Shown here: piece by piece, positions 33,922 through 58,150 of the stretch
How positions within the stretch are numbered: position 1 is the stretch's first letter
Layout of the letters: each line of letters starts with the position of its first letter
Source of the DNA: Eledone cirrhosa
Lineage: Eukaryota
Assembly: GCA_964016885.1 (NCBI GenBank)
Contig: OZ024761.1
Location: 14,756,001 to 14,820,000, forward strand
Reading direction: 5' to 3'
DNA: 64,000 nucleotides
Program-made: the position numbers and the translations under genes
Notes under the pieces: generated by a model
Database searches by the model: none
Told to the model about the DNA's origin: nothing
Seen by the model: the letters and a program-made list of their open reading frames with translations, nothing else

Positions 33922-34361
33922 GAGATAAATCCACCAATTAATGGTAGGGTCTAAGCCGTATGAAGAACTCAATGTAATCCGTATGTAGAAGATGTCGTGA
34001 AGCAAAGTTTAAAATACAAAATTTCAACGATATAATTCATTGGATACAGAGTCAAAAATACAAATAGTGAAAACAATGAAATTAAACAAAAAACGGTTAA
34101 TTCATAGTAAAACTCATTATTTTACGATCGTTTCTGGGGGGTAGTTCTCCGTATGTCCATTCTATTATTGATCTATGTAAAACATATTCCTAATTATCAT
34201 AGTAAGAAAATATCCATACGTCTTCTCTACCCGCCGTCTTCAGAAAATCAATAATAGAATGGACATTCGGGGAACTACCCTCCAGAAACGATCGTAAAAT
34301 AATGAGTTTTACTATGAATTAACCGTTTTTTGTTTAATCTCATTGTTTTCACTATTTGTAT
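33922..34361. mobile_element. Family C element with 115-bp inverted arms and a long-stem-II hammerhead on the minus strand (34116-34248)
   Basis: Arms 34058-34172 and 34247-34361. Minus strand: ttt CTGAAGA [102 nt; gggtag/ctaccc and cgtatg/catacg pair] GAAAC GATC GTA aaa. Confidence 0.78.
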
Positions 34362-34477
34362 ATATATATATATATATATATATATATATATATATATATA
34401 TATATATATATATATATATATATATGTTTATCCCGGGTTCACAGTAAGTAAGGTACTCAATACATAGCAGAGTATAA

Positions 34478-34620
34478 ATATTTAATTTAGAAATGGCTTC
34501 AACAGGACTATAACTGTTTCATTCGGGAGAAATCATCAGGAAGCCCCGATGATTCTTCCTAATGATTTTTCCCGAATGAAACAGTTCTAGTCATGTAGAA
34601 GCCATTTCTATATTAAATAT
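34478..34620. mobile_element. Fold-back remnant with two opposed degenerate hammerhead motifs
   Basis: Minus: CTGATGA tttctcccgaat GAAACAGTTA (34511-34539). Plus: CTAATGA...GAAACAGTTC (34559-34587). Confidence 0.6.
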
Positions 34621-37600
34621 ATATATATTTATATATATATATATATATATATATATATATACGTACACACACACGCACACACACGCACACACACACACAC
34701 ACACACACACACACACACACACACACACACACACACACACACACATATATATATGGATAAACCCCCACGTCCTGGTATCTCCTTTCTTTGTCAGTTGACG
34801 CACTTAAGAAATTTTCTCATTTTTATTTGTGCAATTCGCCTAAAGGCATAATTTGTCTCTACCTGTTTTATTATGTTGAAATGTGTACTGGAATGAAGGG
34901 TACCAACTTAAATAAACCGAAACTGTAGTGATTTCCAGATGTTGACTGAGGAGATGAGACTGTCCGCTTTTCCATTTTCTTTGTCCCCTGCGCTCCATGT
35001 TTTGAATGTGTATGTGTGTGTATATATATATATATATATATATATATATATATATATATATATATACATATATATATATATATATATATACATATATATA
35101 TATATATATATATATACATATATATATATATATATATATATATATACATATATATATATACATATATATATATATATATATATATATATACATATATATA
35201 TATATATATATATATATATACATATATATATATATATATATACATATATATATATATATATATATATATATATATATATATATATATATATATATACATA
35301 TATATATATATACATATATATATATATACATATATATATATACACATATATATATATATACATATATATATGCATGTGTGTATACATATGTATGTATGTG
35401 TACGCATATATATATGCGCGTGGAGAGAGAGAGGGTGGGGGGAAGAGAAAGAGAGAGAGGGGAGGGAAAGAAACGTTACCTGTATATACAAGTTAAGTGT
35501 ACTACTGAACTCAATAAACTTTTCCGTGTCTACCTGAACTATGAAAAGTTCAGCTTCACTTCACACACACACACACACACACACGCATATATATGCATGA
35601 ATGAATGTATGTATGTATGTATGTATGTATGTATGTATGTATGTATGTATGTATGTATGTGTGTGTATATATATATATATATATATATATATTGATATAT
35701 ATATATATATATATTGATATATTGTATATATATATATATATATATATTGATATATTGTATATGTATATATATATATTTTATGTCATATATATATTATATG
35801 TGTGTGCGTGTGTGTGCGTATATATATATATATACATATATATAATGTGTTAAGTGAATTGTTTTATCTATAAAACACTCCATATAGACCGTGCAAATAA
35901 TGTTTTAATGTTTTGTAGTGTTTAAAGTAGAGAACAAGAAGAGGTTATGAAAATGTCAAGATTGTATATATATATATATATGAGAGAGAGAGAGAGATGT
36001 AAATACATACAAAGATAGAAAGAGGGATTAGGTGAGAGTGTAGATCAAAGGAAAAGGTATGAGTTAGTGAGTAAGAAAAAGATGGGAGTGCAAGATAGAT
36101 AGATAGAGAGAGTAGAGTTAAAGAAAGGGTTTGAGTTAGTGAGTGAGTGAGTGAACGTGTGTTATTAACTATAAATAGAGAGTAAGAAAAACGAAGAGAG
36201 TGAAACATAGAGAGAGAGTGAGTGAGTGTGAGAGTTGTAGAAAGGGTAAGAGTTAGTGAGTGAGTATTAGTGCTATAGTTGAGGTAAACTAAACTCCTCC
36301 CACATTTACCAGCAATGGCCTCAACCACAAATGTAGATATGATGTCACACGTCACGTGGTTAGATCATCGAAAGGAGAAGTTAGGATATTAGACTCCAAG
36401 CATTCTTCTTTCATTTTTCTTAATTTTTTTAAAGTTTTTTTCATAATTATTTATGTTTTTTTATTAATAATAAATATTTTCCTCATCACTTCCTTTTTAT
36501 GTTGCTAATATATGTATACATATAAGTGCGTGTGTATGTGTATATATATGTGTGTGTGTATATGTATGTATTTATATATATATATATGTATATGCATGTA
36601 TACATATGTATATGTACATATGAATCTATATACATGCATAAAAGTATATGTATATAAATATATGTGTGTGTGTGTATATGTATGCATTTATATATATATA
36701 TATATATATGTGTGTGTGTGTATGTATGTATATGTACATATGTATCTATATACATGCATAAAAATATATGTATATAAAAATATGTAATCATAATGTATAT
36801 ATATGTATACATAAGTATATATATATATATATATATGTGTATGTGTGTGTGTGTGTGTGTGTGTACATTTGCATATGTATGTATACATATATTTATATAT
36901 ATATATATATGTGTGTGTGTGTGTACATATGTATATGTATGTATATATATATTTATATATATATGTGTGTGTGTATACATATATATATATGCGTGTGTGT
37001 ATACATATATATATATATATGCGTGTGTGTATACATATGTCTATGTATGTATATATAAAACTAAAGACAACTATTTTTTAACTTTTCTTTTATATCTATA
37101 TATATGCATATATATATAGATGTATATGTATATTGATATGTGTGTAAACATATCAAACTCAACACATTTTATTTTTTAATGTGCAAAATTAAAGCAAATA
37201 TTTTTTATTTCATTTAAAAAATATATATAACACTAAAAAAATCTCCCACTATTTATTTATATTTAATAATTTCTTAAAATCTAAATCGAATATTATTTAT
37301 TAAAGGCATTTTTTATAATAATAATGCGTGTGTGTGTATTTTTGTTTCTTATAAACAGAAATTTCATGTTTAATAATAAAATTAGAATATATATTAAAAT
37401 ATAAAAGTTTATTTCTTTATATATGAAATTAGAAGGGTTGGACAAATTATGGACAACTTTATGGTGCCACTGTCTCTCTTTGTTCTGTCTTTATGTATTA
37501 GTCTCTCTTTCTGTCTCTCTCACTCACATTTACTTTATATTCTTACTATTTCTCTCTCTCTCCTCTTCTCTTATACTATTTCACCTTCTCTGCTAAAGCG

Positions 37601-56347: not shown

Positions 56348-56440
56348 CGTAGTATGTAAGCTCGCCTCTGATTTTGTGCGAATATCTCCAGTACTTTGTT
56401 ATATATATATATATAATATATATATATATATATATATATA

Positions 56441-56997
56441 TAAAAGTGGATGAATACTTCAACAGGTACTATGTACTTGTAGAAATATGCAAGTTGTTTA
56501 TAATATTTGTGGTTCAATGGTACTAATTTCAGATACCAGAACAATATAAAAAGAGCGGAGCAAGCGGTTATCAAACAATTCTCTAAATAAATTAAAAAAA
56601 CGATTTAAATAATCACCTGTTCTATTGCTGTTACCGACGGTTTCACCATTCCAAAAATTGGAAATCCAGAGAATTTCCAATGGAAAGAAATGGATCTTCA
56701 GACAGCTTATTTCCATACTATAAGGTTGCCAGCCTTACAGCAAGTAAATATTTCGCTTCCTGCCCAACGCATGCGGTCAAGCCGTTAAAATGACACACAC
56801 GCAAAATCAGGTCGCAGATAATAGCTGTTTATTATAAACGTGTTGATATTGCCACTAAAATTAGCAGCATTATTCAACGTTTTGTTCTCTACATAAGGAG
56901 AAAAATTATAAAAGTGGATGAATACCTCAACAGGCACTAAGTACTTGTAGAAATATGCAAGGTGTTTATAATAGTTGTGGTTCGATGGTACTAATTT
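56441..56997 (-). mobile_element. Retrozyme-like / pLTR-like partial tandem (468-bp period) containing a hammerhead
   Basis: 89-bp direct repeats at 56441-56529 and 56909-56997 flank the ribozyme. Confidence 0.75.
56627..56706 (-). ncRNA. Intact type I hammerhead ribozyme, best example in the window
   Basis: gctgt CTGAAGA t ccatttc...ttggaaat-tctctgg-atttccaa...ggaatgg t GAAA CC GTC GG TA acagc. 5-bp Watson-Crick stem I, long stem II, 3-bp stem III, GUA site between 56632 and 56631. Confidence 0.88.
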
Positions 56998-58030
56998 ATC
57001 ATCATCATATATATATATATAAGGGTGTGAATTGGCAGTATCGGTAGAGGGTCGGACGCCATGCTTTCCAGCATAGTTACGTCCCTTTACGATCTGAGTT
57101 CAAATCCCGCCGAGGTTGACTTTGCCTTTCATCCTTACGGGATCGATAAAATAAAGTACCAGTAATGCACTGGGTAATTTGCTGGCCTTGTGCCTAACGT
57201 AGAAACAATCATATATATATATATTGATAAAAAAAACAGGAAGTTATATTCTTAGTAAGTAGAGCATTCAGCCCAAAGGATGAGTTTGGTATAGAGTAAG
57301 TGCCACAACAGATGAGCAAACCTTACTCATGGACACGTGTTTGACCAGAGAGATTTTCAATTTATGTAAGGCTGTAACTGCCACCATATACAGGTTGAAA
57401 ATTTGTTCTGTGGAACACCTGTCCTCGAGTATAATTTGCTAATTTATTGTGGACTAACTCTCTCTCTCTCTCTCTCTGTCTCTCTCTCTCTCTCTATATA
57501 TATATATAAATGGAACATATGAGTAAGGTTTTGTTATCTGACTTATCTAGCTTCATAACTGTGACAGCCTGTCTAAACTATGCAAGCATGAAAAAGTGGA
57601 CATAATAAAAACAATGATGGTGGTGACGATATATACATTATATATATATATGTATGTATGTATATATATATGTATATAAATATGTATGTATATATAAATA
57701 TGTATGTATATATAAATATATATATGTATACATGAATATATGTATGTATATATAAATATATGTATGTATGTATGTATATATAAATATATGTATGTATATA
57801 TATATAAATATGTATGTTTATATATATATGTATGTATATATAAATATATATGTATGTATATATATGTATGTATATATAAATATGTATGTTTATATATATA
57901 TATATATATATATGTATGTATATATAAATATGTATGTGTATATAAATATATATGTATATATATATATATATATATATATGTAGAAAAGATGAATATAAAA
58001 TGAAAGTGCTTTTAAAAAGGAATTTATTAG

Positions 58031-58150
58031 GTATTGACATATGTTTCTGTAACAGACGGAATACCTATGTATCGCTGCTTGCGTAATCATATAATGTTAG
58101 CAAGTATTCGATAGCAAATGTATAATGAGTTGTCACTTCTTCAGAGATAT
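58031..58150 (-). ncRNA. Hammerhead motif with 90-nt stem II region and weak stem I
   Basis: CTGAAGA a gtgaca...tgttac a GAAAC ATAT GTC. GUC triplet. Confidence 0.6.

Follow-up and report, generated by a model that had tools for sequence, protein, structure and literature searches.

A stretch of 64,000 nucleotides (nt) from Eledone cirrhosa (assembly GCA_964016885.1, contig OZ024761.1, positions 14,756,001 to 14,820,000 of the forward strand; referred to below as the window) raises the question of why hammerhead ribozyme motifs should carry a stem II grown to 50-116 nt. The window is repeat-rich animal DNA from a 3.0-Gb assembly, and its long-armed hammerheads very probably belong to Penelope-like elements (PLEs) and have a long stem II under selection; this is secure for two of the repeat families concerned (A and D) and likely for the two others (B and C). 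The arm is read here as a handle with an invariant tip, located in the 5' untranslated region (5' UTR), through which the reverse transcriptase (RT)-endonuclease of the element would bind uncut RNA; this function, suggested by sequence comparison, is given a probability of about 0.5.

Long-armed hammerheads and their families

Spacers were measured as the letters between the two halves of the core pattern CUGANGA ... GAAA. A preliminary description of this DNA had placed the core halves 102, 115, 61, 50 and 90 nt apart; all five distances proved exact, and a sixth copy (114 nt, minus strand, core at 47343), lying head-to-head with the plus copy at 47 kb, had been missed. Four of the five sites first noted are on the minus strand, and the one at 47349 is on the plus strand. 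The full core, a palindromic stem III and the UH triplet are present at all six sites. A type I descriptor (core, stem III of at least 3 pairs, stem I of at least 3 pairs) returned five window sites with spacers above 45 nt and five shorter ones, two of which are doubtful, with unfolded spacers; 100 block-wise dinucleotide shuffles gave on average 0.16 long-spacer sites (maximum 1) and 0.10 shorter ones. The 58-kb site escaped the descriptor because its stem I has 1 pair. Rfam returned no match in the window at gathering thresholds, and its matches by E value were rejected as AT-repeat microRNA noise.

The long-arm sites fall into four repeat families (A-D), which together have about 15,000 exact-pattern copies in the genome. 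Family A, comprising the sites at 34 and 47 kb, has 10,852 such copies with spacers of 92-122 nt, family B (61 nt) has 932, family C (50 nt) 1,303 and the D type (90 nt) 1,932, the last including a related family with about 80 nt; reversed-pattern controls for A, B, C and D gave 0, 0, 0 and 4 matches, respectively. Spacer length is held in family A: in counts covering 4-34, 35-65 and 92-122 nt, the 10,852 long copies compare with 3 at 4-34 nt (slightly narrower pattern) and 13 at 35-65 nt, and each shortened copy carries a different deletion.

Subfamily A1 is represented in the window by a solo pseudo-long terminal repeat (pseudo-LTR) with a long tail (33924..34246, minus strand). Its core CUGAAGA occupies 34243-34237, the 102-nt spacer 34236-34135 and GAAA 34134-34131; the predicted cut falls between 34123 and 34122, and the copy is 5'-truncated 3 nt before the core. 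The inverted, 5'-truncated partner of this element (34247..34359, plus strand) retains only the hammerhead 3' half and a short tail, and ends in a TA repeat. Two young A2 copies stand head-to-head, one on the minus strand with a short tail (47141..47350; core at 47343, 114-nt spacer 47336-47223) and one on the plus strand with a long tail (47349..47693; core 47356-47362, 115-nt spacer 47363-47477, GAAA 47478-47481, predicted cut after 47489). A1 is a minority (4 of the first 100 rows of the family A match list), and A2 makes up most of the family. The copies at 34 and 47 kb had been assigned to one family with differing stem II sequences that both pair: the family stands, and so do the quoted helices and their pairing, while the difference lies mainly in the basal helix, the middle and tip of the A1 and A2 spacers being homologous.

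Judging by the frames that accompany them, families A and D are terminal repeats of Hydra-type Penelope-like retrotransposons. The A repeat lies downstream of a frame of 729 amino acids (aa) and, at locus L086, upstream of the same frame. The frame comprises an RT (YRDD), a long low-complexity insert, a CNCR..CPLNG.C linker and a GIY-YIG domain, whose Pfam match (E=0.009) is under the curated cut-off; the C-terminal CxH is present as CNH. The linker matches the Hydra-clade rows, and not the Nematis rows, of the supplement to PMC8557442 (statements on this and the other papers cited refer to the parts of them that were covered). The closest named protein among 108 matches was one of Argonauta hians (42%). 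The insert between RT and endonuclease in the A protein (L084:2655-4841) is Asn/Thr/His-rich and about 350 aa long, far longer than that of D. The D repeat is found on both sides of a related RT and GIY-YIG frame, 3.1-3.3 kb apart (L385-L387), and this frame carries a CxC..CPLxGxC linker; the window holds the 3' UTR end and pseudo-LTR of a family D copy (57980..58287, minus strand; core at 58144, 90-nt spacer 58137-58048). Both families show the layout of Hydra-clade PLEs, namely a pseudo-LTR with a sense hammerhead, a tail, inverted copies and TA-repeat targets.

Family B (56214..56401, minus strand; core at 56341, 61-nt spacer 56334-56274) has the same repeat layout, two tail ends and inverted pairs. 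Family C is present as about 1.2 units of a 467-bp non-coding tandem repeat (56443..56998, minus strand; core at 56701, 50-nt spacer 56694-56645). Elsewhere its units recur with a period of 457-467 bp, each with a type I hammerhead, and the arrays reach more than 25 units; one satellite-like array of more than 25 hammerhead-bearing 457-bp units has an inversion in its middle (G000:C1:156425780-156438441). No Hydra frame was found in sense across 24 C loci, and a search for autonomous parents of B and C established none. Family C thus described appears to be retrozyme-like: it shares non-coding tandem type I hammerhead units in arrays of more than 25 with the non-LTR retrozymes (PMC7229834; Li et al. 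2026, preprint 10.64898/2026.07.22.740005) and differs from them in its 457-467-bp unit and 50-nt stem II.

Other families in the Eledone genome have spacers of 12-36, 46-52, 57-59, 75, 82 and 95 nt, so that long arms are a trend of the lineage and not a single accident. Further long-spacer families (46-96 nt) with different palindromic stems III were seen at L078, L320, L120/L309, L086:282, L131, L147, L050, L312, L316 and L333. Hammerheads with a U3-A8 core swap occur in family B and in other families (L318 and L319, minus strand, 1372, and also on the plus strand; L195), and one of them sits in tandem units of 316-318 bp.

Pairing of the arm

The stability z-scores of the window spacers were -3.4, -6.3, -5.3, -3.5 and -2.5; the spacer of the 61-nt family B copy (-0.3) folds no better than shuffled sequence. 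Family A was examined in 179 copies with 132 distinct spacers from 8 subfamilies. Nine of the 11 positions of its basal helix pair in all 8 subfamilies, six of them with double changes that include a G-C/G-U/A-U series. All subfamilies share a C-C mismatch, and at the first position seven have C-A and one has U-A. The middle helix contains a C-G/G-C swap and a U-A/U-G/C-G series, and the tip helices are invariant over the 8 subfamilies apart from one A-U/U-G change. In 19 chosen A2 rows, 94.9% of 665 cells were paired, compared with no more than 67% in slid controls, and both partners had changed at 5 of 35 pairs; among 500 shuffles, 5 were as high for the double-change measure and none for cells and score. 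In the covariation check that had been proposed earlier, RNAalifold reported double changes at 6 of 17 pairs in 20 family A rows. Substitutions in family A kept the pair in 13 of 25 cases when shared by at least 3 loci, compared with 26 of 97 private ones (p=0.029).

In family C (25 rows picked for variety from the 1,303 copies), 11 of 24 pairs, one of them in stem I, had changed on both sides, a value reached by none of 500 shuffles. Stem I and the basal part of stem II covaried most strongly, and the basal helix was only 62% paired. Stem II closes beside the core through basal pairs with double changes in A and C, and by predicted fold only in B and D; covariation in B was seen by eye only. 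In A and C pairs have persisted through changes of both partners, and the alignments of these two families therefore support selection for an RNA hairpin. The earlier claim of selection for pairing is upheld to this extent.

Two further properties concern the arm as RNA. In young A2 the sense fold is far better than the antisense fold (-40 versus -18; about 20 kcal/mol). Predicted folds show a 4x3 internal loop (ANUW/YAG) in 88 of 108 A spacers and in 9 of 11 spacers of D size; no other family has it. The reading of the A tip as a SECIS element or kink-turn was rejected, the helix being too short and the 729-aa frame having no in-frame UGA.

Cleavage, copying and the role of the arm

The evidence for an active ribozyme is weaker than that for the hairpin: D has one stem I pair, B and the window A copies do not fold best as hammerheads, and genomic copies do not pile up at the predicted cut site. 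Stem I has 14 bp in complete A1 copies, 9 in A2, 7 in B (including the window copy) and 5 in C (56706-56702 with 56631-56627 in the window), and the window A copies are truncated to 3-7. In family D the window copy and the full-length copies have 1 pair, below the descriptor threshold of 3; stem I has at most 5 pairs in the relatives L378-L383. In D, part of the arm is complementary to the strand that follows the cut site. The pair 10.1-11.1 in the window is C-A (A), U-U (B and C) or A-A (D) and departs from the usual G-C, which, or U-A, is found in some subfamilies; C-A also occurs in the short relative L296, and stem II tolerates U-U at its base (PMC3088659), a mismatch that is common in Hydra-clade hammerheads (PMC8557442). 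Dimers were folded through the palindromic stem III, and the energy gap from the hammerhead fold to the minimum was expressed per monomer. It was 0-0.7 kcal/mol for five intact A copies and 0.2 kcal/mol for the window C copy, 3.5-11.6 kcal/mol for the window A copies and 1.8-4.6 kcal/mol for three more young A2 copies. The preliminary description would have counted folds that do not bring the core halves together against its reading; such folds are predicted for D, B and the truncated A copies of the window.

Copying was followed in a position-ordered sample of 81 family A copies, 39 of which continue into the element body, 42 being solo. Family A tails end 60-79 nt (35 copies) or 190-219 nt (30 copies) past stem III, in TA repeats. 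The anole element has two internal initiation sites for reverse transcription and an uncut RNA template (PMC11167929), a pattern that the two tail ends and the uncut copies of family A fit. Counts of the young A2 tail pattern fell from 7,790 to 7,685 on extension by 3 nt up to the cut site and to 7,553 on extension by 3 nt across it (drops of 1.3 and 1.7%), so that these counts show no pile-up of genomic copies at the cut site. Cut 3' products are therefore not a notable source of copies, and uncut RNA was inserted. A head-to-head junction at which both copies nearly reach the position 7 nt upstream of the core (-7) recurs in the window (47337-47362) and at loci L030, L033, L037, L040 and L050; near-perfect head-to-head pairs were found at 10 of 57 sampled loci. 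The junction suggests priming on both target strands followed by annealing of the complementary DNA ends.

The hammerhead lies in the 5' UTR, the start codon following the core after about 410 nt (A) or 320 nt (D). According to the handle model, stem II would have grown to a hairpin of 50-116 nt, kept paired and bound by the RT-endonuclease on uncut RNA. Transcription starting near -7 would make the hairpin the first structure of the RNA; its basal pairs would close the hammerhead junction, and the invariant tip, with the 4x3 loop common to A and D, would be the protein contact. Reverse transcription from the tail sites, as for the anole element (PMC11167929), would copy the whole hairpin and yield thousands of solo and head-to-head copies. 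The ribozyme may be slow, dimer- or protein-dependent, or, in D, inactive. Rare cleavage could strip the cap, the hairpin and the five upstream AUGs held by the A1 arm from the message, and in C could release unit-length RNA. Two other uses of the insert had been put forward, tertiary contacts and cargo, and neither is supported: the continuous, open-ended stem I helix of family A offers no loop for docking, and the insert has no mark of a cargo. A bolder and on balance doubtful extension of the handle model would place all of this in one Hydra-type lineage in which the hammerhead turned scaffold, stem II becoming a protein-binding domain whose shared 4x3 loop loads the RT at the RNA 5' end and which outlived catalysis in D. 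The series of families with arms of 12-116 nt, the young stem-I-less D and some 10,000 copies from uncut template offer the means to separate cleavage from protein binding.

Several results weigh against a selected protein handle on a hammerhead. Few independent events underlie the covariation (about six in A), and the basal difference between A1 and A2 could go back to one replacement by an AT repeat; the shuffle control takes no account of relatedness, which inflates such counts. Shared substitutions in family A showed no significant shift to loops (p=0.14), RNAalifold alone predicted neither the basal helix nor stem I of family C, and no folding advantage of the sense strand was found in the three older subfamilies A2e, A2f and A1b. 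The 4x3 loop is a post hoc observation, and B, C and the other long families lack it. The median dimer gap was 8.9 kcal/mol in B and 4.25 kcal/mol in 24 C variants, compared with 0.6 kcal/mol in 57 short relatives. No RT frame could be tied to family B, one nearby RT fragment possibly belonging to another element.

The alternative that survives best, itself unlikely, is tolerated growth: loop II would be permissive, slippage would have lengthened the arm, and pairing would be selected only to join the core halves of an active ribozyme. It would account for the continuum of spacer lengths from 12 to 116 nt across many families of the genome, for an A2 arm that is partly AT repeat with a 10-nt duplication, and for covariation in C that peaks in stem I and in the basal part of stem II. 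It accommodates less easily that the tip is the most conserved part in A, that none of the 16 shortened copies founded a subfamily, and that D, a young and abundant family, retains the hairpin without stem I.

An arm that acts mainly as DNA, as the downstream part of an internal promoter whose hairpin follows from its position inside the ribozyme, is improbable. Twenty of the 42 solo A copies match to exactly 7 nt upstream of the core (6 to at least 8 nt, 16 to fewer), and this end lies at an initiator-like TCA+1TT site, as a promoter would predict; it could also arise by fold-back on stem I. In A1 a motif resembling a downstream promoter element (DPE), AGACGTAT, lies at +28 from the initiator A, close to the RGACGTGY element of Drosophila virilis Penelope (PMC2377424), but it is missing at +28 in A2, the bulk of the family, and a promoter does not need compensatory pairing. 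A co-shift of start site and DPE by 3 nt in A2 had been considered and was dropped when the position-ordered sample put most 5' ends at -7.

Less probable still is a brake, by which the arm would favour folds that pair the core away (UUUCUG with CAGAAA in A, the post-cut strand with the arm in D) and most RNA would survive as template. For monomers of A1, young A2 and D the predicted minimum is indeed such an alternative fold and not the hammerhead, and copies do come from uncut RNA. In A, however, the letters beside the core suffice for the blocking pairs and the long arm is not required; dimers of intact A copies take the hammerhead fold, and short Penelope hammerheads are already slow (PMC4209133). 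That the hairpins are mere DNA inverted repeats from template switching, with no RNA function, is very improbable: the elements constantly make inverted copies and the three older subfamilies lack a sense-strand advantage, but the arms are interrupted and not perfect, amplified subfamilies contain G-U intermediates and double changes, and the sense-strand advantage in young A2 is large.

Relatives, published hammerheads and minor features

Relatives of the elements were taken from metagenomes (77 loci encoding related RTs, from the best 80 of 349) and scanned with a descriptor permitting spacers up to 160 nt. A hammerhead was found at 57 of the 77 loci, and all 67 spacers were 10-25 nt long; among the 20 loci with no match, 5 had short cores missing a filter, and no convincing long one was seen. 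In the window this descriptor recovers four of the six long sites, and five when stem I is relaxed to 1 pair. An RT tree of 51 rows (14 from the Eledone genome, 33 of the 57 metagenome loci and 4 proteins; midpoint root, six rows less than half filled, no named reference elements) separates the RTs of this genome, together with P0001, P0002 and P0009, from all metagenome rows by a long, fully supported branch. At thirty loci of another Hydra family no clear hammerhead was found within 1.5 kb downstream.

Described Penelope hammerheads had been taken to be usually short in stem II. This agrees with the 57 relatives and needs qualification, as spacers of 35-54 nt are already in print (PMC8557442): the core halves of PLE-X1_sMoe are about 54 nt apart, and those of eight Naiad "HHR_half_core" cases 35-50 nt. 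These resemble the Eledone motifs in their distant core halves and differ in belonging to other clades, in being listed as deviating or non-hammerhead, and in having half the arm length of A and D; the parts of PMC8557442 covered give no covariation for them. The Hydra-clade hammerheads of that study (Craig et al. 2021) likewise fold as type I and sit in the pseudo-LTR in the orientation of a frame with RT, CNCR..CPL.G.C linker and C-terminal GIY-YIG; the targets are TA repeats, stem III is palindromic, and stem II often has a U-U mismatch at its base. Their spacers are about 12-25 nt long, compared with 50-116 nt in several helices in the Eledone families.

The minimal metazoan PLE hammerheads (Cervera and de la Pena 2014, PMC4209133) share the dimer-type stem III, mostly solo copies, close inverted pairs and a low expected activity; their "larger than usual" helix II has only 6-8 bp and starts with a G-C pair, and "long helix II" in print likewise means 6-8 bp (PMC4209133, PMC13725137). 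The anole Poseidon element PAc (Frangieh et al. 2024, PMC11167929) shares two tail ends, AT-rich targets, an uncut RNA template and a hammerhead near the RNA 5' end, but is of another clade, and its frame starts at stem II and not 320-410 nt downstream. A literature search, with incomplete coverage of print, returned no description of a stem II of 90-116 nt. Long-spacer hammerheads thus have a partial precedent (about 54 nt). Genomic hammerhead counts obtained with short-stem descriptors or Rfam are too low; if the scaffold extension were true, such motifs would escape descriptor searches by the tens of thousands, and the Naiad "half cores" might include real long-arm hammerheads.

Among the remaining features of the window, a broken frame at 32607-33417 may resemble the C-terminal restriction-like endonuclease of a non-LTR retrotransposon. 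A short-spacer (31 nt) hammerhead, used for comparison, lies at 33735..33796 (minus strand) and adjoins fragments of another Penelope-like endonuclease. Together with this one, short-spacer hammerheads (13-31 nt) of other repeat families were noted at 5640-5900, 6055, 14175, 19142, 41674 and 55918, those at 5724 (minus) and 5813 (plus) forming a head-to-head pair. A SINE-like repeat is present in two copies (56014-56190 and 57034-57210) and often adjoins hammerhead elements at other loci.

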